Source: Candidatus Poseidoniaceae archaeon (GTDB lineage: Archaea > Thermoplasmatota > Poseidoniia > Poseidoniales > Poseidoniaceae). Taken from it: a stretch of 64,000 nt of DNA. The position numbers were made by a program, and so were the translations under genes. This document shows positions 42,365 through 52,449 of this stretch, piece after piece. Positions within the stretch are counted from its first letter, which is position 1. Each line of letters opens with the position of its first letter. The notes under the pieces are model-generated. The model had not been told where the DNA came from and searched no databases. It was given only the letters and a program-made list of their open reading frames with translations. The stretch is taken from NCBI GenBank assembly GCA_949372875.1, contig CASIAW010000005.1:98586-162585 (forward strand). Reading direction: 5' to 3'.

Positions 42365-45016
42365 TTAGGACACGAGAGGGTTGGAAACGTATGGCTTTGA
42401 GTCTGTACGTTGAGCCTTAAGGTTGTGAAGAAGAATCGCAGCGCTTGCAGAGAAGATTTGAACAAGAGCGAAAAACGCTTGCCAGGTTAACATGAAGATT
42501 AGTCTTGGATAAGTAGGAGAATATGCATAGAGGCAAAGACATCCCAAAACAAGGAGAGATTGTGCGAGAATAAATGGCATTAGCGGAATCTCTTGTTCTT
42601 GTATGAACATCATCATGACGCACGACGCAATCAAGAGAGGACTTGCAATCATCAAGATCATCCATCCGGTTGAAGGGCTGTTACCAGCTGCGAAATAGCC
42701 TCCTTGAACTGCTACTGCGCCCGGGTCTAATTCTCTTGGGTGTGGACAAATCCCTTCAAAACAGGTTTGAATTCCATTAACTTGACCATAAAGAGTCCAC
42801 CAGAGCAACCACATCAACCAAGGTAACATGGCATAGAACAACCAAAGCCACTGTTGCGATGATTGCCTTCGTTCAAGTCCAGTCCATTTTTTCAAGGCAG
42901 AAACAATTGTTGGGGTGGATGCTAACAAGACGGTAATACAACAAGCAGCCCATGGCCCCCATGAGACCAAAGTATGCAATGCAACTGCATGGATGGTGTG
43001 CATCTTCGAATATTCTCGATTCTCACCGAAAAATGAGTGATGTATAGCAAGCCCATACCCAGCGAGAACAAGGATGAGCATCAATCGCTCAAGAGGGTCA
43101 TAACCGATTTCACGAACGATTACGCCAAGTACGAGTGCTATCCCAAAAAATGTGGTCGCTCGATGCTCATCTTTGGGTAATACGGTGTTTTTCACTACGA
43201 GGAGCATCCAAATGATGAGAAGGCCCGTTAGCAAAAAACCACCTATGCTGACGGCACTCAAATTAATCAGATCTAACATGTAATGCCTTCCAAACAAACG
43301 ACGATGGACCAGAACGATAGCCGATAATGTCAGAGCAAACACTGACAGAAGAGGTATCATAGATTCCTTTGTGCGTTCTGTATCTTTCTCAAGAAGAATT
43401 CCTCCAAGGATGTAATACCAAGGTATGAGGAAAAACCAAAGACGCAGTCCTCCGATACTGATGAGGACAACTGCAAACAGAATGAAAAGGTAATTTCGCT
43501 CTTTCTCATCACTTCTCCAATGTCCCGAGAATGCAAGAACAGAGACGGCAAGCAAGGCGAACATAGCGCTTTGCACCATAGCTTGCGTGAGCGTTCCTTG
43601 GAATACTACTAACGCAAGGAGAGTCAAACCTACGAGGCTCCAAAAACTGGGTTCAAACTTTTTCCATTTAATCGACGTGTTTGGAGCACGACCAAGCGCT
43701 GAGCTTACCAACCAAACCGCACCAAGTGCGCCGAGTCCACGCGGAATCATAGCAGAATAAGCAAGGTTTGCTTGAAAATACATCAATACAAAGCCAAACA
43801 AACCAATACCGCCAAGCTTGATTAATTCGTCTCTTTGAGTCATTTTATTGGCTCCAAACGCATAAGCAACTCCGGCGAGGAGAATGAGTAAAGTGAGAAT
43901 GGATACAATCACATCCAATGTCCTCACTTGAATCGGTTCAGTTTCGATTGATTCCCAATCAACAACCGTTTCTGACAACATGTCTTTGTCTTGAGGATAA
44001 TAAAACACGTGTCTGTTATATCCAGCCTTCCAATTCCATTGCTCCAACGTTGAAATTTCAGAGGATGTGTGGTCCAACATCGCAAGAGGAATCCTTCCTT
44101 GCAGTTGGTTAGGGAAATCGAGAAGCAGTGTGGAGACCATGAATGCGGCGATATCTGGCTGTTTGATGTCAGACCATACTCCAGTATTCACATGCGGTCC
44201 AGAAATAATAGCAGCGACTTCTTGAGTGACTTTTTCAGCAGAACCGTGGGTTCCTGCATCGGTCATGCCGTGATCGGCAGTTATGACAACAGTCCAATCA
44301 GGCGGCACTGTTCGTAAGAGTCGGTCCACTGTCAGGTCAATGGAGAGGAGTTTCTGCCTGTATTCATCGGTTTGAATCCCCCAATGATGGCCGACTTTAT
44401 CCGGTCCAGAAAAGTGTGCAGCAATGACGTTATGTTCTCCGTTTTGAAGCCATTGTGCGGCTACAGTTTCTGTTTCTTCATCGCCTTGATAGTAGTCGCT
44501 ATGGCCTTTGAAAGTATCAACAAAACTGATATTTGGCATACCTTGGTAGATATTCCCCATCACATAGCTTCCAACCATGCCTACAGAATACCTCTCATCT
44601 TGGGATGCGAGAGTCCATGGATCATTGCCACCTGGGTGGCCAAGATTGAAGTTGTTTAATCCATCAATCGGCCTGTTTGGAACTCCAGTCATCAATTCAC
44701 TGATGCATGTCGCAGACAGCGTAAGTGGGCCTGTTTGGATGTTTAATACAGCAGCCGTTTGTTTGTGACTGTTCAGGTTCGGCATGGATTTTTCATCCAG
44801 CATCAATTCTCTTCCAACACCATCCAAAATGATGAGCAGAAATCCTTCGTTTTGACTGATTATGCTCACCGCATCGACTTCTCCAGGTGGAGTGTCTGTG
44901 TCCAGCAAGACATAAGGAGCGGTAATGAACGCTGGAATGAGCATTAAAGCGAGTAGAAAATACAACCACCGTGTTGGAGGTGAACTGTACAGTTCAGCGC
45001 TTTGCGTTGATTCCAT
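42365..45016 (-). CDS. Alkaline-phosphatase-superfamily (type I phosphodiesterase / phosphotransferase) domain fused to a C-terminal polytopic membrane domain. Architecture resembles eukaryotic GPI ethanolamine-phosphate transferases (PigN/PigO-like).
   Basis: N-terminal TM, then FLLIILDGVGRE (metal-binding Asp), GPDKVGHHWG, VVITADHGMTDAGTHGS (AlkP-core His/Asp). After about aa 380 there are at least 12 hydrophobic helices. 883 aa. Confidence 0.55.
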   Translation of the reverse strand: MESTQSAELYSSPPTRWLYFLLALMLIPAFITAPYVLLDTDTPPGEVDAVSIISQNEGFLLIILDGVGRELMLDEKSMPNLNSHKQTAAVLNIQTGPLTLSATCISELMTGVPNRPIDGLNNFNLGHPGGNDPWTLASQDERYSVGMVGSYVMGNIYQGMPNISFVDTFKGHSDYYQGDEETETVAAQWLQNGEHNVIAAHFSGPDKVGHHWGIQTDEYRQKLLSIDLTVDRLLRTVPPDWTVVITADHGMTDAGTHGSAEKVTQEVAAIISGPHVNTGVWSDIKQPDIAAFMVSTLLLDFPNQLQGRIPLAMLDHTSSEISTLEQWNWKAGYNRHVFYYPQDKDMLSETVVDWESIETEPIQVRTLDVIVSILTLLILLAGVAYAFGANKMTQRDELIKLGGIGLFGFVLMYFQANLAYSAMIPRGLGALGAVWLVSSALGRAPNTSIKWKKFEPSFWSLVGLTLLALVVFQGTLTQAMVQSAMFALLAVSVLAFSGHWRSDEKERNYLFILFAVVLISIGGLRLWFFLIPWYYILGGILLEKDTERTKESMIPLLSVFALTLSAIVLVHRRLFGRHYMLDLINLSAVSIGGFLLTGLLIIWMLLVVKNTVLPKDEHRATTFFGIALVLGVIVREIGYDPLERLMLILVLAGYGLAIHHSFFGENREYSKMHTIHAVALHTLVSWGPWAACCITVLLASTPTIVSALKKWTGLERRQSSQQWLWLFYAMLPWLMWLLWWTLYGQVNGIQTCFEGICPHPRELDPGAVAVQGGYFAAGNSPSTGWMILMIASPLLIASCVMMMFIQEQEIPLMPFILAQSLLVLGCLCLYAYSPTYPRLIFMLTWQAFFALVQIFSASAAILLHNLKAQRTDSKPYVSNPLVS

Positions 45017-45066
45017 GTAGGGTCCTCAAAGTGACTCTTCGGTTGCAGCAGGGACTTAGTCGTAAC

Positions 45067-45102
45067 CTGGACAGGTGCCCCCCCTAGCGGGGGGGCGTCC
45101 AG
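45067..45102. terminator. GC-rich interrupted hairpin (6-bp outer + 8-bp inner G/C stem) between two co-oriented minus-strand genes. Candidate terminator / RNA structural element.
   Basis: CTGGAC-aggt-GCCCCCCC-tagc-GGGGGGGC-GTCCAG read directly in the sequence. Lies 44 nt downstream of the lipoprotein stop and 50 nt upstream of the next gene start. Confidence 0.35.
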
Positions 45103-45145
45103 TATCAACAAAGCACAATGCTTCAATCGAGGTATATTATCGGTT

Positions 45146-46297
45146 TCAACTGTAGGTTCCAATGTCATCAGAGGTGATGCCATAGTGAGCCCAGACATGC
45201 TCGAGGTGAGCAGTAACGTCGTAGGAGGTTCCAAGTTGAGTAGCGTCTTGAAGGTTCAAGATCTCGTTGATTTTGTCTGCACCGTAGTGTCCATCAAAGG
45301 TTTCGTTTGCTGCGTCACAAGCGGATGCATCAGAGTTTCCGACATAAGTTACGTTTCCGTCAGTGTGGATACATGCATTGGTGTGAGCAGCCGAGTATGC
45401 TTCGATTGCCTTCCAGAATGCATATCCTTCAACTTGATACTTCTCGCCGGACTCGTTGCTGTCCATCTTCGAAGTGTACTTGAGAACTGCTTGGGAGTAT
45501 GTAATGACGAGGTTCTTGACAACGGTGTCTGCTGCTGCAGTGTATCCAGCAGAGTCTCCTGCTTGGAGTGCTGCAAGTCCGTCAACCATTGCGGTTTGAG
45601 AAGCAGTGAGAGCGTTTGAGACGCCATTGGTTTCTGTGCCAAAGTCAGCAGCGCGCTTTTCCATTACCTTAGCAGGAGAGCAGCCGTAGTCTTCATCAGG
45701 TCCGTGGAAGAATGCCCATCCTTCGTCCCAGTTGTGTGGAGCGCCGGAGTCGTTGTCGACGTTTCCAGCATCTGCCTTTGCAATTGCTGAGTTCAACTCG
45801 TGAATAGTGTAAGCAACCATTCCCATGTTAACGGTCAACTTTGCAATACCTTGGTATCGAACGGTGTCAGAAACACCAGCGAAGTCGCCTGTGCCGTCCA
45901 TTGCAGCCATGATGTGGTCATCGACTGAACCGGATGCGTCGTAGTATGCATCGTAGCCGTGGTTCTTACCATCAGCAGACGCAAAGCCAGCGAGTGTGCG
46001 GTAAGAGCCATCGCTTTTTTCTGCATTCTTGCCGTTCATGTAGATGTCCTTTGCAGTTGCGAAGTCGTAGCCGCCATCAGAGCTAGCTGCGGTCTTCATG
46101 TCGCAAAGGTCCTTCATGAGAGAGCGGTGGTTGTCAACATTTGATGCATAGGTGTAGCCACCATCTTCAGCATCCATTGCAACGACCGAATCTGCTGCGT
46201 CCGTCGTTTCGTCTTCTTCTGATGCCAAGCAGCCTGCTAATCCAGAAACTGCCATCAATGCAATCAATACTAATCCTTTCAATTTTGTGTGGTTCAT
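45146..46297 (-). CDS. Secreted lipoprotein of unknown function (DGGY/DGSY-repeat containing)
   Basis: Lipobox MNHTKLKGLVLIALMAVSGLAGC. Repeated ...DGGYTYA..., ...DGGYDFA..., ...DGSYRTLAGF... 383 aa. Confidence 0.6.
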   Translation of the reverse strand: MNHTKLKGLVLIALMAVSGLAGCLASEEDETTDAADSVVAMDAEDGGYTYASNVDNHRSLMKDLCDMKTAASSDGGYDFATAKDIYMNGKNAEKSDGSYRTLAGFASADGKNHGYDAYYDASGSVDDHIMAAMDGTGDFAGVSDTVRYQGIAKLTVNMGMVAYTIHELNSAIAKADAGNVDNDSGAPHNWDEGWAFFHGPDEDYGCSPAKVMEKRAADFGTETNGVSNALTASQTAMVDGLAALQAGDSAGYTAAADTVVKNLVITYSQAVLKYTSKMDSNESGEKYQVEGYAFWKAIEAYSAAHTNACIHTDGNVTYVGNSDASACDAANETFDGHYGADKINEILNLQDATQLGTSYDVTAHLEHVWAHYGITSDDIGTYS

Positions 46298-46311: not shown

Positions 46312-46358
46312 TTAGGGGGCCCTAAAACCGCCTTATAAATGTTCTTAGGGCGCCCTAA
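46312..46358. promoter_or_regulatory. Two 14-bp palindromes (TTAGGGGGCCCTAA near-perfect; TTAGGGCGCCCTAA perfect), centres 33 bp apart, bracketing a TATA-like box (TTATAAA, 46333-46339) upstream of the lipoprotein gene. Candidate operator pair.
   Basis: Direct reading: 46312-46325 and 46345-46358. The lipoprotein start codon is at 46297. Confidence 0.4.
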
Positions 46359-46492: not shown

Positions 46493-46918
46493 TCAGCAAC
46501 AGCCTTCATCACGCATGGGGGCGCTGATGAAAGTAACCTTATCGACATTGGCAGTATTCTGGAGTTGCTCAATAACCGAACGATAGTGAGATGCCTTTCC
46601 AATGCCTTGGATCACATCGACACACGAATGGCTATGTTTGAGACAGCTGTGGTTGTATGAAGTAATCTCAAGTTCACCGGAGTGACGTAAATCGATAAGT
46701 TTATGCTCATTTCCGTGTTGATAGTAGATGACTAAGTGACCTTCAACGACTGTATCATCATCCATATCTGCTAACTCTCCTCTCTGTTGTATTTCAGCAA
46801 AAAGTAAAGCAGCATCTCGAATGAAGCGACTTCGGTTTTGATATCCTGATTTTTTGATTAAGTCTTCAAAGTCCTCGGCAAATTTTTTATCAGCACTAAA
46901 CGAAATGATTTGGCTCAT
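46493..46918 (-). CDS. nikR: NikR-like metal-responsive transcriptional regulator (N-terminal ribbon-helix-helix + C-terminal ACT-like metal-binding domain)
   Basis: N-terminal DKKFAEDFEDLIKKSGYQNRSRFIRDAALLF resembles the NikR RHH region (...LDxLxxxRGYxNRSEAIRD...). C-terminal domain has HLVIYYQHGNEH and HSCLKHSHSCVDV, His/Cys clusters placed like the NikR high-affinity metal site. 141 aa. Confidence 0.6.
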   Translation of the reverse strand: MSQIISFSADKKFAEDFEDLIKKSGYQNRSRFIRDAALLFAEIQQRGELADMDDDTVVEGHLVIYYQHGNEHKLIDLRHSGELEITSYNHSCLKHSHSCVDVIQGIGKASHYRSVIEQLQNTANVDKVTFISAPMRDEGCC

Positions 46919-46938
46919 GTTGTAACGGAGGAGAGAGT

Positions 46939-46974
46939 CACTAATAATAACTGCCTAGGTGGTAATTATTAGTG
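46939..46974. promoter_or_regulatory. Perfect 10-N16-10 inverted repeat (CACTAATAAT-N16-ATTATTAGTG) in the divergent promoter between the nikR-like gene and the ZnuA-like gene. Candidate NikR-type operator.
   Basis: Read directly. The spacer centre contains CCTAGG. A TATA-like TTAAATA (46977-46983) sits about 27 nt upstream of the ATG at 47007. E. coli NikR is known to bind a GTATGA-N16-TCATAC dyad. Confidence 0.5.
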
Positions 46975-47006
46975 TTCATTAAATAGTTAATAGAAAACGG
47001 CACGAC

Positions 47007-50000
47007 ATGAACAACAACCGTATGAGAGTCGTTTTCGTAAGCCTGATTATGATTTTTTCAAGCCTTGCTGGATGTATTGGCGATGAAGAATTGGAAGCTA
47101 TTGAAGAGGCCACTGACCTCTTGAATGATGCAACAAACTCCACAATGGATGGCAACAATACCACAACCATTGGGATGTTGGGATCCGTAATGGTTTCAAC
47201 ATACCACGTCGGAGAACTCGTCAAAGCAATCGCTGGCGAACATGTCGACATGGAATACATGAGTCTTGACAACATCCCCGTCCACGATTACGAACCATCT
47301 GCATCGGATCTCATCCGACTTCAGAACTCTGACGTTTTCTTCTACCACGGACTAGGACTCGAACCCTGGGTCGATGCAACGCTTGACTCCTTGGGTAACG
47401 ATGCTCCAACAGCCGTTCAAGTTCACACCATGCCTAGTGGGGAAGAGACCCTCGATTATGAATCGTTACTCGTCTCTGATTTGTGCAAAACTCTCTTAGA
47501 AGGGCCATACGAAACCGTTGAACTTGTTGATGAAGAAGAGCACGCTGATGATGTTAAAATCCTAGCTGAATACATGGCGCATAACATCACATTCCCTCAC
47601 GAAGAGCATGACGACCATGCTGATGAAGAAGGTGACCATGATGACCACGCTGAGGAAGAAGACGGGCATGACGGCCATGCTGATGAAGAAGGCAACCATT
47701 CAGAAGAAGGTCACGAAGACCACGACGCTCATGATGATGGCCACGAAGGCCATGCCCACCTTGTTGCTGAACAAACTCTTTCCAACCCTGCAGGATGTCC
47801 TGCTGACACAATGATTTCCATATTCCACCTCGAAGAAGGGGAATACATCATTGAATTCGATGCAGAACATGCAGATGATTTCACAATGGCAGTTCTCAAG
47901 ATGCTTGGCGGTCACGCACACCACGACCATGGTGACCACGGTGACGAACACGGAGATGAACATGATGACCATGATGGTCATGGTGACGAACACTTCGTTT
48001 GCCACGATATGACAACTCACGAAAACACCAACCACACCACTGAGGAAGAATGTGTAGCCGCAGGCCACATGTGGATGAAAGAAGACGGTCACGACGACCA
48101 TGAAGGCGACTACTGCCACGATACAACAACTCACGAAAACACCAACCATACCACTGAGGAAGAATGTGTTGCCGCAGGCCACACGTGGATGGAAGAAGCC
48201 GATCACGATGACCATGATGGCCACGACGACCATGATGGCCACGACGACCATGACGACCACGATGGCCATGACGACCACGATGGCCATGACGACCCGTGCG
48301 CCGACCACTATGACCACGACGACCATGATGACCACGGAGATCACATGACTGCAGAAGAAGCGCTTGAAGAAGCCGATTCAAACAACGACAGTCTCCTTTC
48401 TTGGGATGAATTCTGGGATTCCTGGAACGACGATGGGCACGATGACCATGACGACCATGACGACCATGATGAAGAACATCACGGCGTCTTCGTATTATTC
48501 CCTGACAACTGCATGCTCATGTATGCTGCTGAAGACGATATGCTGCCTGAAAACGCAACTGGATGGAACCTCACAACATCTGCAATGATGGGAGATGACA
48601 CACTCGAGCTCAATTACTCCGTTCATGAAACATACGGCACTAGTGTCAGTGGAATCAACGGATTTATGGCTCCAGAAGATTATTCCTGGTATTGGCAACT
48701 TATGCTCTGGAACGGCACAGAAAACAACACTGGCTGGGAAGTCAGCAATGTTGGTATTGACTCTGTAATGATTCCTGAAATGACAGAACACGTCGCTTGG
48801 ATGCCAAATTCCTCGGACATGTCATATTTGCCAGACCTCAGTATGATGCATGATGACCATGATGACCATGATGACCATGATGGCCATGATGACTTCGAAA
48901 GAACATTCCACTGCAGTTCTACCGTTGGTGGCACTCCAGACACAGAAATTCCGTTCTCTCAAGTGAACGATGGCACTGAAGACTGTGGCGATGGTTCCGA
49001 TGAGCCTCAAGACTTTGACGGTGATGGTATTGTTGACAACTGGTTCGACTGCATGGATGGTTCAAATGTGTCCATGGAATTCGTTAACGACGGATATGAT
49101 GACTGCCCTGATGGTGATGATGAATCTCACGATGATGACCACAGTGACAATGAAGGAGCGCCAACGCCTCAAGAATTTATCAATATGACTGATACTGACG
49201 GAAATGGAACAATGAGCTTTGATGAATTCATTGCATTCATGAATTCACCTGATCCTGACGGTGAACATGAAGATGATGATGAGTCATTGCCACAATCTAT
49301 GGTTGACGAACTCAGAGTAATATTCGATAACAACGATGCAGATCAGTCCGGAGAGTTAGATCTCGATGAACTCGACCAATTTATCATTGACACGGATGAG
49401 TACTTTATGTCAATGGATGGCGGTGATGGCGAACCGACTCAAGAGGAACTCCAGTTCCTCTTCAACGCATCCGATGCAGACGGCGACCAATTGTTGAACG
49501 TTACCGAACTTGGTGCATTCATGGAAATGCTCGAAGACCTCATGGAAGATGACCACCATGATGATCACGACGACCATGACAATCACGACGACCATGACGA
49601 CCACGGCGACGATAACCACGCTGACGAAGAAGATCACCATCCTGTCGGCTATGTGACCCTTCACGTTAATGCTGAAGGCGACTATGGTTTCGCTCTACCT
49701 ATGGATGTTGAATTCCACATCATGATGGCCGAAGGCGGCCATGACGACCATGCTGGCCATGATGATCACGACGACCATGATGACCATGCTGGAGAAGAAG
49801 GCGACCATGCTGAAGAAGAAGGCGACCATGATGACCACGCTGATGAAGAAGGTAACCATACTGATGAAGAAGGTGACCATGATGACCACGCTGACGAAGA
49901 AGGAGCTCTCGATTATGACCCTCACAGCTGGCTTAGCCCACTTGCTTTCAAGGCACAAGTGAATGTTGTTCTCGACGGACTAACCACTGCTTTCCCTGCT

Positions 50001-50447
50001 GGAGAAGCAGTCTTCAAGGTAAACGCTGAGGCATATGCTGCTCAATTAACAGCTCTTGACGTTTCATTTGACGCTGCCTTCGGAGAAGGCGGCCAATGCA
50101 TGGCTGGAGGTCAACAAAAGACTGTGGCTTCAAACCACAACGCTTACTCCTACATCGCAGTTGAATACGGAATCCAATTCATGACCGTTCACGGACTTGA
50201 CCCAGAAGGAGAACCATCTCCTGAAGATGTCGCTAAGGTTGTTAACTTCATCAAGGAAGAAGGAATCACTGTTCTGTTTGTTGAAGAATACACCGACCAA
50301 TCTTCAGTGCAAAGCATTGTTGATGAAACAGGTGTGTCGATTCAAATCCTTTACACCATGGAAATGGCACCAAGCGATTCTGATGACAATTACATGACAA
50401 TGATGACCAAGAACCTTGCAAACCTCGTAGCCGGTATCGGATGCTGA
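47007..50447 (+). CDS. znuA: ZnuA/TroA-family (cluster-9) metal-binding lipoprotein with an interlobe His/Asp/Glu-rich loop hyper-expanded to about 800 aa, containing EF-hand-like and LDLa-like calcium-binding modules
   Basis: Lipobox MNNNRMRVVFVSLIMIFSSLAGC. N-lobe motif ...DNIPVHDYEPSASDLIRLQNSDVFFYHGLGLEPWV... C-lobe DPHSWLSPLAF...ASNHNAYSYIAVEYGIQ...EPSPEDVAKVVNFIKEEGITVLFVEE... (TroA-like). Between them are HDDHDGHDDHDDHDG-type runs, DTDGNGTMSFDEF / DNNDADQSGELDLDEL / DADGDQLLNVTEL (EF-hand DxDxDG...E loops) and two VNDGxxDCxDGSDE modules. Confidence 0.85.
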   Translation: MNNNRMRVVFVSLIMIFSSLAGCIGDEELEAIEEATDLLNDATNSTMDGNNTTTIGMLGSVMVSTYHVGELVKAIAGEHVDMEYMSLDNIPVHDYEPSASDLIRLQNSDVFFYHGLGLEPWVDATLDSLGNDAPTAVQVHTMPSGEETLDYESLLVSDLCKTLLEGPYETVELVDEEEHADDVKILAEYMAHNITFPHEEHDDHADEEGDHDDHAEEEDGHDGHADEEGNHSEEGHEDHDAHDDGHEGHAHLVAEQTLSNPAGCPADTMISIFHLEEGEYIIEFDAEHADDFTMAVLKMLGGHAHHDHGDHGDEHGDEHDDHDGHGDEHFVCHDMTTHENTNHTTEEECVAAGHMWMKEDGHDDHEGDYCHDTTTHENTNHTTEEECVAAGHTWMEEADHDDHDGHDDHDGHDDHDDHDGHDDHDGHDDPCADHYDHDDHDDHGDHMTAEEALEEADSNNDSLLSWDEFWDSWNDDGHDDHDDHDDHDEEHHGVFVLFPDNCMLMYAAEDDMLPENATGWNLTTSAMMGDDTLELNYSVHETYGTSVSGINGFMAPEDYSWYWQLMLWNGTENNTGWEVSNVGIDSVMIPEMTEHVAWMPNSSDMSYLPDLSMMHDDHDDHDDHDGHDDFERTFHCSSTVGGTPDTEIPFSQVNDGTEDCGDGSDEPQDFDGDGIVDNWFDCMDGSNVSMEFVNDGYDDCPDGDDESHDDDHSDNEGAPTPQEFINMTDTDGNGTMSFDEFIAFMNSPDPDGEHEDDDESLPQSMVDELRVIFDNNDADQSGELDLDELDQFIIDTDEYFMSMDGGDGEPTQEELQFLFNASDADGDQLLNVTELGAFMEMLEDLMEDDHHDDHDDHDNHDDHDDHGDDNHADEEDHHPVGYVTLHVNAEGDYGFALPMDVEFHIMMAEGGHDDHAGHDDHDDHDDHAGEEGDHAEEEGDHDDHADEEGNHTDEEGDHDDHADEEGALDYDPHSWLSPLAFKAQVNVVLDGLTTAFPAGEAVFKVNAEAYAAQLTALDVSFDAAFGEGGQCMAGGQQKTVASNHNAYSYIAVEYGIQFMTVHGLDPEGEPSPEDVAKVVNFIKEEGITVLFVEEYTDQSSVQSIVDETGVSIQILYTMEMAPSDSDDNYMTMMTKNLANLVAGIGC

Positions 50448-50671: not shown

Positions 50672-51535
50672 ATGGTAGTGCTTAATATGCAACCTCCAGC
50701 CGATAACAAAGTGATGGAAGAAGCGGCTGCAATCCTAAAAATAAAGGATTTGACCGTAAGCCGTTCCGGAAAAGTGGTTATCCACGACATCAATCTAAGC
50801 GTACGTAAAGGCGAATTTATCGGTTTAGTTGGACCCAATGGTAGCGGTAAGTCAACGCTTCTTCTGTCCATTCTTGGCGTTTTGAGAGCCCAGCAAGGCT
50901 CTATTCAGATATATGGTCAAAAACCAATGTCAAGAAGCATTCTGGGTAAAATTGGCTGGGTCTCTCAAGCTGCAGCGGTCATGCCGAAGAACGTGAGAAT
51001 TACAGTTCGAGAACTCGTCCAACTAGGTACCTTAAACTCGAGGAATATGTTTTGGCGAAGAAAGGGAATCCATCGTGAAAAAGTGGACCAGGCAATGAAA
51101 ATGGTTGGATTAGAAGGGGTTGCAGACAATGACATAGCGCGACTTTCAGGAGGGCAGCGTCAGCGTGCTGTTATTGGTCGTGCTCTTGCATCCGATGCAC
51201 AATTTATCTTGTTGGATGAACCTCTCGTGGGTATTGACCGAGAATCTCGAAACTCGTTACTCAAGTTATTAGACAAGCTCTGCCATGATGAAAATAAAAC
51301 TATCCTGATGGTCTCACACGATCTCGCTGCGATTCGTCAAACCGCTCACCGTATGATTTATCTTGAAGAATCTATACGATTTGACGGGCTAACTGAAGAC
51401 TTCCCTGACCTTACAACCCTTGCTGGATTACGCGGCATTGAACCAGTGCATGGTCATAGCCATGACAAAAATATTCCGAAATCAATTGTTCTTGGGACTG
51501 AGAAGAATGAACATTCCAATAAGGAGGAAGAATAA
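50672..51535 (+). CDS. znuC: ABC transporter ATP-binding protein (ZnuC/TroB-like, metal-type ABC)
   Basis: Walker A GPNGSGKSTLL, ABC signature LSGGQRQRAVIGRAL, Walker B FILLDEP, H-loop MVSHDL. Confidence 0.85.
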   Translation: MVVLNMQPPADNKVMEEAAAILKIKDLTVSRSGKVVIHDINLSVRKGEFIGLVGPNGSGKSTLLLSILGVLRAQQGSIQIYGQKPMSRSILGKIGWVSQAAAVMPKNVRITVRELVQLGTLNSRNMFWRRKGIHREKVDQAMKMVGLEGVADNDIARLSGGQRQRAVIGRALASDAQFILLDEPLVGIDRESRNSLLKLLDKLCHDENKTILMVSHDLAAIRQTAHRMIYLEESIRFDGLTEDFPDLTTLAGLRGIEPVHGHSHDKNIPKSIVLGTEKNEHSNKEEE

Positions 51536-52449
51536 TGGGAATAGGAATGACGATTTTAGAACTCGTTGCTCCAGTACTCGAGTTTATCGCACCAATGGTT
51601 CCTGGAGAGATTTTTCCATATTTCTTTACTATGGAAATGTTTCAACGTGCTCTTTTGGCAGCGATCATGGTCACGATGGTTGCTGGTGTACTTGGCTCCT
51701 TTTTGCTGATTCGAAACCTCGCCCTTATCGGGGACGGTTTGGCTCACGTATCCTTTGGTGGGGTAGCTGTTGGTGTGGTATTGGGGGCCACTTCCCCCCT
51801 CTGGTATGCACTGGTATTCAGCGTAATTTCTGCAGTTATTATTCACGAAATGCAAACCAGAGAATTGCTAACTGGTGATGCCTCAATCGCTATTTTCTTA
51901 ACTGGAATGCTCGCTTTAGGTCTCGTTGTTCTTCGAGTATTTGGTGGAGGAATAACGAGCGATATCGAGGGATATCTGTTCGGAAGTTTACTTCTCATTG
52001 ACGAGAAGAGTCTTGACATGATTGCTAGCATCAGTATATTCTCACTTCTTTCCCTCTTAATGCTCTATTCTGGATTACTTTCGACGACCATTGATCCACT
52101 TGCTGCTCGTGTTCAGGGACTTCCAGTTCGAGCAATTGGACTCGTGTTTAGCATCATCACTGCTGCTGTAGTTGTGAGTATGGTTCAAGTTATTGGGGCT
52201 TTACTCGTAACCGCGTTACTGGTCACTCCAGCTGCAACCGCCCAACTGGTAGGGCGTAGTTTCCGTTCCTGTTTAATTTGGACTCAAGTTTTTGGAATGT
52301 CTGCTATTTTCATTGGGCTGTATCTCTCAGCAGAGCACGACTCGGGTAGTGGAGCAATGATTGCTTTAGTTGCGGCTTCGATATTTGCAACAGTGGCAAT
52401 CTTAAAAACTGTAATTCTGGGTTTGATTAAGCCAAATCAAAACCTCTAA
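51535..52449 (+). CDS. znuB: ABC-3 family metal-transport permease (ZnuB/TroC-like)
   Basis: 304 aa, about 8-9 TM helices. Start codon overlaps the znuC stop (ATAATGGG). ABC-3-like hydrophobic profile. Confidence 0.85.
   Translation: MGIGMTILELVAPVLEFIAPMVPGEIFPYFFTMEMFQRALLAAIMVTMVAGVLGSFLLIRNLALIGDGLAHVSFGGVAVGVVLGATSPLWYALVFSVISAVIIHEMQTRELLTGDASIAIFLTGMLALGLVVLRVFGGGITSDIEGYLFGSLLLIDEKSLDMIASISIFSLLSLLMLYSGLLSTTIDPLAARVQGLPVRAIGLVFSIITAAVVVSMVQVIGALLVTALLVTPAATAQLVGRSFRSCLIWTQVFGMSAIFIGLYLSAEHDSGSGAMIALVAASIFATVAILKTVILGLIKPNQNL

Follow-up and report, generated by a model that had tools for sequence, protein, structure and literature searches.

The operator at which Escherichia coli NikR acts on nikABCDE reads GTATGA-N16-TCATAC, a 28-bp site of the form 6-N16-6 (PMC7055735). 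NikR boxes predicted in other bacteria have a 7-N13/14-7 form and cover 27-28 bp (PMC545781), and the consensus of Helicobacter pylori NikR is the AT-rich TATWATT-N11-AATWATA (PMC4557348). H. pylori NikR is an autorepressor that acts from the intergenic region of its gene (PMC4557348, PMC3177205), and Pyrococcus horikoshii NikR is known only to repress nickel-specific ATP-binding cassette (ABC) importers (PMC11672702). A survey from 2009 detected neither Fur nor Zur homologues among the archaeal genomes of that time and predicted a DtxR-like factor for Methanosarcina (PMC2770081). Here, we describe an inverted repeat in a 64,000-nt stretch (hereafter the window) of contig CASIAW010000005.1 from a Candidatus Poseidoniaceae archaeon of Marine Group II, located between the gene of a NikR-family regulator and the divergent gene of a zinc-type binding protein. 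Its sequence, surroundings and conservation suggest that this dyad is probably the autoregulated operator of the adjacent NikR-family repressor, which would control a Zur-like zinc regulon.

The dyad, CACTAATAAT-AACTGCCTAGGTGGTA-ATTATTAGTG, is a perfect 10-N16-10 inverted repeat, and its letters and coordinates (Table 1) are exactly those given in an earlier note on this DNA that was made from the sequence alone. It lies in an 88-nt gap between the minus-strand gene of the 141-amino-acid (aa) regulator and the plus-strand gene of the 1146-aa binding protein. Some of the distances in that note need adjustment. The dyad is indeed upstream of the regulator start codon (ATG at 46918), at 20 nt (46919-46938) instead of 21 nt; the TATA-like box TTAAATAG does precede the transporter ATG at 47007, starting 28 nt ahead of it rather than about 27 nt; and this box is not directly abutted by the dyad, as 4 nt (TTCA) lie in between. 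The dyad forms the outer portion of an imperfect palindrome of 36 bp (two 18-nt halves with 83% complementarity) with CCTAGG at its center. It is identical in nine contigs of the same species, with two single-nucleotide polymorphisms elsewhere in the intergenic region, and no second copy occurs in the window, even when three mismatches are allowed (0 of 100 shuffles). Perfect inverted repeats with 10-nt arms and spacers of 0-30 nt number two in the window, compared with a mean of 2.4 and a maximum of 7 in 50 dinucleotide shuffles. As the window count is no higher than the shuffle mean, the bare repeat is not improbable; the weight of the dyad comes from where it lies, in a divergent promoter of 88 bp, and from the fact that other genomes conserve it, not from the repeat itself.

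A one-genome-per-species scan yielded 80 Poseidoniales loci from both Marine Group II families, and the regulator upstream regions were aligned by anchoring on the box nearest the regulator start codon. Conservation of the dyad in orthologous intergenic regions, which had been proposed as a check, is clear: the regulator is divergent from znuA in 63 of the 80 species-level loci, with an intergenic region of about 88 nt and a fixed layout, and the site matrix scores at least 12 bits in 69 of the 80. Read in the direction of the regulator, this layout comprises the znuA start codon, about 12 nt, a box named H1 (CTATTAAC), the znuA TATA box (TATTTAAT), about 6 nt, a middle box (CTAATAATTA), 9-10 variable nt, a proximal box (AATTATTATTA) and 22-23 variable nt up to the regulator ATG. 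Information content peaks at TAATAAT, ATTATTA, the TATA box and H1, and is close to zero in the spacer and between each TATA box and its ATG. The symmetric conserved core thus consists of the 7-nt TAATAAT and ATTATTA and not of the 10-nt arms, whose longer perfect symmetry had been considered significant. The outer three bases of these arms (CAC/GTG) are not conserved and are complementary in 32/78 and 33/78 loci, with 27.8 and 29.1 expected, and the 10-nt arms were rejected as a functional unit on these grounds. The extended 36-bp palindrome or hairpin was likewise rejected as a conserved element, because self-complementarity of the spacer is at chance in 62 loci (a mean of 2.40 of 8 pairs versus 2.43 expected). 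As outer bases and spacer are complementary only at chance elsewhere, the long palindrome and its hairpin potential are lineage-specific.

Some loci are arranged differently. The distal box is displaced by 1 bp in L026, L034 and L035, in which the regulator follows znuABC on the same strand and the binding-protein gene is either in fragments or extends past the end of the locus. In four loci without a transporter nearby (L047, L049, L050 and L063), the inverted pair is replaced by a direct repeat located some 60 nt upstream of the regulator, with two copies of AATTATTATT at a distance of 21 bp. L020 and L043 are two regulator-znuA loci on different contigs of one Poseidonia metagenome-assembled genome, for which paralogy or strain mixture is possible.

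The proximal box TTATTATTA consists of two overlapping ATTATTA heptamers, 3 bp apart, and the distal TAATAAT therefore pairs with one of them at N13 and with the other at N16. Among 78 loci, the proximal heptamer is perfect in 68 for the inner (N13) and in 53 for the outer (N16) register, and the whole dyad is perfect in 30 and 15, respectively. The window reverses this family trend, as its N16 register is perfect and its N13 register has one mismatch (TAATAAC). The family register, TAATAAT-N13-ATTATTA, is a 27-bp inverted repeat with an unconserved spacer and matches the usual 27-28-bp NikR box. The earlier note had stressed that the dyad and the E. coli operator have the same N16 spacing. 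This proves to be a coincidence of notation, with 10-N16-10 covering 36 bp and 6-N16-6 covering 28 bp, while the family register is 7-N13-7.

The arms also have a defined place within the divergent promoter. Positions 46942-46950 read TTATTATTA on the minus strand. This TATA-like box of the regulator gene stops 23 nt short of the ATG, and the proximal box of nearly all 78 species loci stops 22-23 nt short of it. General promoter geometry places the TATA box of a leaderless archaeal mRNA 22-23 nt before the ATG, and the proximal arm appears to occupy this expected site of the regulator's own TATA box. None of the other upstream regions of genes in the window, which number 40-odd, contains TTATTATTA, and this rules it out as the generic promoter of this genome. 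The initial description of the dyad as located at the TATA box and the recognition element of transcription factor B (TFB; the element is abbreviated BRE) of both genes holds only for the proximal arm, which is at a TATA position. Between the other arm and the transporter TATA that follows it there are 4 nt, so that this arm is on the BRE side. TTAAATAG ends 20 nt ahead of the transporter ATG; because the TATA box is this close, the mRNA of the binding-protein operon is probably leaderless. No Shine-Dalgarno sequence was found upstream of the regulator gene or the transporter gene. Box H1, which reads GTTAATAG in the window, is kept in znuA-linked and ZIP-linked modules (L010-L089, L170-L178) and not at COG0523 genes (see below), and might act as a promoter element or as a third half-site. 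H1 and the palindromic middle box CTAATAATTAG give a weak position weight matrix match (8.3 bits) and, as a pair, might make up an overlapping second dyad on both sides of the transporter TATA.

The earlier note had suggested a search for further copies of the dyad. Within the window, the site matrix finds no second strong site, only the weak pair of H1 and middle box. Across 517 kb of related loci, it recovers the regulator's own site in the 69 loci mentioned above, and clear additional sites only upstream of a COG0523/CobW-family GTPase gene. COG0523 genes are typical of Zur regulons (PMC2770081). We collected 80 metagenome loci carrying this GTPase, which gave 70 dereplicated upstream regions. 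TAATAAT-N13-ATTATTA with at most two mismatches is present in 45 of the 70 (16 perfect), while shuffles give about 1.4, and the spacing peak is sharp at N13. These promoters also share the composite ATTATTAGT-N5-TTAAATAG with the znuA promoter of the window. At 20 of 38 COG0523 sites, the upstream open reading frame (ORF) is codirectional and mostly ends within about 40 nt of the dyad; at such sites, the distal arm therefore cannot be the TATA box of a divergent gene. At the COG0523 sites, the two arms covary symmetrically at one position, with 34 sites of the type TAATAAT/ATTATTA and six of the type TATTAAT/ATTAATA being symmetric versus five asymmetric ones (Fisher p = 2.5e-4, uncorrected for shared ancestry). 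With at most one mismatch, TAATAAT-N13-ATTATTA has 120 matches in 973 kb (the window plus the 160 loci, hence the flanks of these same genes), 74 of them before the regulator and 46 before COG0523, and none elsewhere. In two lineages, the closest relative of the regulator (78% identity) and one species-level genome, a ZIP transporter replaces znuA as the divergent partner with the same promoter module, H1 included. The target set common to one motif (a zinc-type ABC importer, a ZIP transporter and a COG0523 GTPase) is that of a Zur regulon. In some lineages, an S15-family X-Pro dipeptidyl-peptidase is divergent from COG0523, with the dyad in the shared intergenic region (L051:4444-6351 and related loci), and may be a further regulon member.

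The regulator itself scores 21.7 bits with Pfam RHH_1, a ribbon-helix-helix (RHH) profile with a cut-off of 20.5, and 22.0 bits with NikR_C, exactly on the cut-off of 22. A profile of its family retrieves P. horikoshii NikR from the PDB (E = 5.6e-11, residues 6-127), and also H. pylori NikR and E. coli NikR weakly, and hhalign matches residues 4-47 to the RHH domain of E. coli NikR, whose sequence was entered by hand, with a probability of 88.5%. The AF2 model (predicted local distance difference test score, 76.8) shows two RHH helices followed by a beta-alpha-beta-beta-alpha-beta domain. With this model, the top 37 Foldseek matches are all NikR structures, and the C-domain alone superposes on NikR at about 2 Å with a target template-modeling score of about 0.8. 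Five NCBIfam NikR models give 23-47 bits with cut-offs of 83-175, so that equivalog and subfamily thresholds are not reached. The earlier label nikR-like is thus borne out for the fold by Pfam, the PDB profile and Foldseek, and does not extend to equivalog level or to an intact nickel site, as one ligand is replaced. At the position of this fourth ligand (P. horikoshii H91), the window protein has Cys and the family Cys or Ser, one residue is inserted in the ligand loop, and the full His3Cys nickel site is absent. We take P. horikoshii H91 to correspond to H89 in E. coli numbering, in an E. coli site formed by H76', H87, H89 and C95. Further invariant residues in the family are H68, H95, H97 and a C-terminal Gly-Cys-Cys. 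The presumed base-contacting strand (I4, S6 and S8, aligned with E. coli R3, T5 and T7) is nearly invariant, which fits the near-invariant core of the half-sites. In L010-L089, nine regulators have Thr9 (..SFST), and the distal arm of all nine has T as its third base, in the form TATTAAx in eight; most others have TAATAAx. This association may reflect co-evolution of protein and site or a shared clade. Residue 6 (Ser/Thr), considered in the same context, has no clear link to half-site variants. Homologues of the regulator with 70-78% identity are plentiful in marine metagenomes, and their named sources are Euryarchaeota or Thalassarchaeaceae.

The sensed metal is most probably zinc, judging from the target genes and the ligands of the binding protein. 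When its insert of 816 aa is removed, the best solved relatives of the binding protein are the zinc proteins AdcA, AdcAII, Lmb and YcdH, with which it aligns at their three His and one Glu ligand positions. These residues are the zinc ligands of those structures. The insert takes the position of the His-rich loop of zinc-specific members, is composed of 21% Asp, 12% Glu and 11.5% His, and contains EF-hand pairs. Length of the binding protein varies between strains (1146-1166 aa), and its gene is split into three ORFs in contig L005. Zinc is also the most probable metal because the same site precedes ZIP and COG0523 genes in relatives, both of which are classical members of zinc-limitation regulons (PMC2770081). 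No Nik/Cbi-type nickel/cobalt transporter or nickel enzyme genes were found beside the regulator in the compared neighborhoods and called-gene tables.

Table 1. Coordinates of the dyad, the parts of the divergent promoter and the adjacent genes in the window.
Feature	Coordinates	Strand	Remarks
Dyad as first described, CACTAATAAT-N16-ATTATTAGTG	46939..46974	.	Perfect 10-nt arms
Left arm CACTAATAAT	46939-46948		
16-nt spacer of the 10-nt-arm dyad	46949-46964		
Right arm ATTATTAGTG	46965-46974		
Regulator-proximal arm, two overlapping heptamers	46942..46951	.	TAATAAT 46942-46948 (N16); TAATAAC 46945-46951 (N13, one mismatch)
Variable spacer (13 nt, family register)	46952..46964	.	Low information content in spacer columns
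Transporter-proximal arm ATTATTA plus G	46965..46972	.	6 nt (46973-46978) before transporter TATA, BRE side
TATA-like box TTAAATAG of the binding-protein operon	46979..46986	+	High information content, 62 loci
Box H1 GTTAATAG	46986..46993	.	Between transporter TATA and start codon; half-site-like
141-aa NikR-family regulator, RHH plus ACT-like metal-binding domain	46493..46918	-	Pfam RHH_1, NikR_C
1146-aa cluster A-I metal-binding lipoprotein (AdcA/ZnuA type), 816-aa Asp/Glu/His-rich insert	47007..50447	+	Pfam ZnuA plus EF-hand
ABC transporter ATPase, same operon	50672..51535	+	Pfam ABC_tran; gene order kept in related loci
ABC-3 family permease, same operon	51535..52449	+	Pfam ABC-3; gene order kept in related loci

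The earlier note had proposed the dyad as a candidate operator common to the divergent regulator and binding-protein genes, autoregulatory by its position, and the conserved layout makes such a shared operator very probable. In the mechanism that we envisage, the regulator would bind as a NikR-like tetramer, with one of its RHH dimers on TAATAAT and another on ATTATTA. These half-sites are 13 bp apart family-wide, and a perfect N16 register is also available in the window. At the regulator promoter, the bound protein would cover the gene's own TATA-like box; in front of the transporter and COG0523 genes, its place would be next to the TATA box, on the BRE side. The transporter TATA may in addition be bracketed with the help of H1, which follows it. 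As the arms lie on or near both TATA boxes, the bound protein should exclude the TATA-binding protein (TBP) and TFB from both promoters. The metal-loaded protein would block them in this way, so that both uptake and regulator synthesis would be repressed when metal is plentiful. In relatives, the same site would control ZIP transporters and COG0523 metallochaperone genes, and the regulator would be a functional counterpart of bacterial Zur on a NikR scaffold.

A number of points weigh against this proposal, the whole of which rests on comparative sequence analysis. The register in use at the window site is ambiguous between N13 (one mismatch) and N16 (perfect), and the distal box is different or shifted in about 11 regulator loci that have no transporter nearby. 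The COG0523 loci are metagenomic, their assignment to Group II being based only on 76-100% protein identity to one genome-derived gene, and the background of the 973-kb specificity test is formed by the flanks of the target genes themselves. In archaea, a position upstream of BRE/TATA, as at znuA and COG0523, is also used by activators. On the protein side, three of the four nickel-ligand positions are kept (H79, H90 and C99 in the alignment to P. horikoshii NikR), and NikR proteins have been described as sensing nickel only, via a His3Cys site (PMC11672702).

One alternative, suggested by the family name, is that the dyad is a true nickel or cobalt NikR operator and that the transporter imports nickel or cobalt. 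The NikR fold, the three kept ligand positions and the usual size of the box (PMC545781) would agree with it, as would the relatives of the COG0523 protein, which include the cobalt-linked CobW (187 bits, but under its cut-off). We nevertheless consider it quite unlikely, given the low scores with the NikR equivalog models, the Cys or Ser at the fourth ligand position and the residue inserted in the ligand loop. Moreover, the transporter is of the AdcA/ZnuA-type cluster A-I with His3Glu ligands and a huge His-rich loop, the regulator has ZIP transporters as alternative partners, and nickel/cobalt transporter or nickel enzyme genes are missing next to the regulator in the examined neighborhoods. 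The operator may also be real and yet bound by another factor, for instance a DtxR-like ZntR, with the NikR-like gene merely a member of the regulon. Indeed, binding by the NikR-like protein is a deduction from the sequence, the predicted regulator of znuABC and COG0523 in Methanosarcina is a DtxR-like factor (PMC2770081), and the AT-rich heptamers resemble the hexamers of Fur/Zur boxes. Such a factor is improbable, however, since 69 of 80 species have the site on the promoter of the NikR-like gene itself, with the proximal box kept even without a nearby transporter, and since no other regulator gene accompanies the site consistently in the loci compared. Half-sites of 7 nt with a variable 13-bp spacer suit two separated DNA-binding modules, as in a NikR tetramer, and are unlike the contiguous 15-19-bp palindromes of Fur or DtxR dimers.

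The direction of control can be questioned as well. The regulator might bind the dyad but activate, recruiting TFB and TBP under metal limitation, and it is in line with this that the dyad at znuA and COG0523 lies upstream of the TATA box and stops 5-6 nt short of it, without covering it, and that H. pylori NikR is both a repressor and an activator (PMC4557348). Activation is unlikely, though, in view of the overlap of the site with the TATA-like box of the regulator's own gene, the conserved H1 past the transporter TATA, which would allow bracketing, and the habit of known uptake regulators, NikR included, to bind DNA metal-loaded and repress (PMC11672702). It is very unlikely that there is no dedicated operator and that the arms are promoter elements of two divergent genes, symmetric by chance. 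While the frequency of perfect 10-nt inverted repeats in shuffles, the proximal arm at the TATA position and the unconserved outer 3 bp of the arms would all agree with this, the explanation is already strongly disfavored by the separate conserved TATA of the transporter, by the same dyad with exact N13 at COG0523 genes without a divergent neighbor, by the zero off-target matches in 973 kb and by the other promoters of the window, which are without these boxes. A nucleic-acid hairpin (RNA element, terminator or cruciform) in place of a protein site is extremely unlikely. As single-stranded DNA, the window sequence does fold at -7.1 kcal/mol (z = -3.1), but the spacer pairs at the chance level given above and other species show no compensatory changes; no Rfam family matches, the sole match reaching 21 bits with a gathering score of 82, and the region would be untranscribed if both mRNAs are leaderless.

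Downstream of the regulator and on the same strand, the window carries genes for a FEA1-related lipoprotein and an 883-aa membrane phosphodiesterase/metalloenzyme-like protein (42365-46297). Near the regulators of the 80 species-level loci, neither gene was detected. The promoter of the FEA1-related gene (45146-46297, minus strand) contains two TTAGGG-N2-CCCTAA dyads (46312-46325 and 46345-46358) that flank a TATA-like ATTTATAA; two copies were found with 0.07 expected. The pair may form a separate operator, perhaps iron-related.

To our knowledge, Marine Group II archaea are abundant surface-ocean heterotrophs without a cultured representative. The literature searched contained nothing on metal regulation in Marine Group II, on NikR in Marine Group II/Poseidoniales or on an archaeal zinc regulator of the RHH/NikR type. 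An inverted repeat before a NikR-like gene is of a well-known kind; what would be new is the probable zinc switch, the defined regulon and the archaeal setting. We lean slightly towards the broader view that these archaea use a diverged NikR-family protein with a remodeled metal site as a zinc sensor acting via one 27-bp dyad. The remodeling may consist of the change of His to Cys/Ser, the extra invariant His and the C-terminal Gly-Cys-Cys, and the dyad may control znuABC-type importers, ZIP transporters, the COG0523 metallochaperone and the regulator's own gene. If this is true, the regulator would be the first member of a "nickel only" family to sense a different metal and an archaeal non-orthologous replacement for Zur. 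It would likewise be a natural case of a NikR scaffold re-tuned to another metal, with a bearing on the evolution of metal selectivity in metalloregulators. The 88-bp region would represent a compact, fully occupied divergent archaeal promoter, and the defined cis-element and candidate zinc-limitation regulon could be used for reading ocean metatranscriptomes against trace-metal data.

With E. coli NikR, the locus shares a regulator composed of an RHH domain and a C-terminal metal-binding domain, and an operator with half-sites about two helical turns apart and an unconserved spacer at the promoter of a metal-uptake ABC transporter. The half-site is TAATAAT instead of GTATGA, however, the host promoters are of the archaeal TATA/BRE type, a zinc-type transporter takes the place of NikABCDE, and the regulator has one nickel ligand replaced, extra invariant His/Cys residues and a C-terminal Gly-Cys-Cys. 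H. pylori NikR is similar in its AT-rich palindromic half-sites and in serving several targets with one loose dyad, but its spacing is N11 rather than N13, and it is a bacterial, nickel- and pH-responsive protein, whereas the target set here is compact and of the zinc type. P. horikoshii NikR (2bj1 and related structures) is archaeal and the closest solved relative by sequence (E value as above) and fold, yet it has the full His3Cys site and only about 28-30% identity with the regulator described here. Bacterial Zur regulons (znuABC, ZIP/ZupT and COG0523 genes such as YciC/ZigA) correspond in their target genes and in the logic of one metal-sensing repressor that serves both the uptake systems and a metallochaperone. 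There, a Fur-family dimer binds a contiguous palindrome of about 15-19 bp, whereas a NikR fold and a split 7-N13-7 site are found here. The DtxR-like ZntR of Methanosarcina likewise represents a computationally predicted archaeal zinc regulon with similar target genes (znuABC, COG0523). As both the regulator family and the motif differ, the relation between the two looks like non-orthologous replacement.

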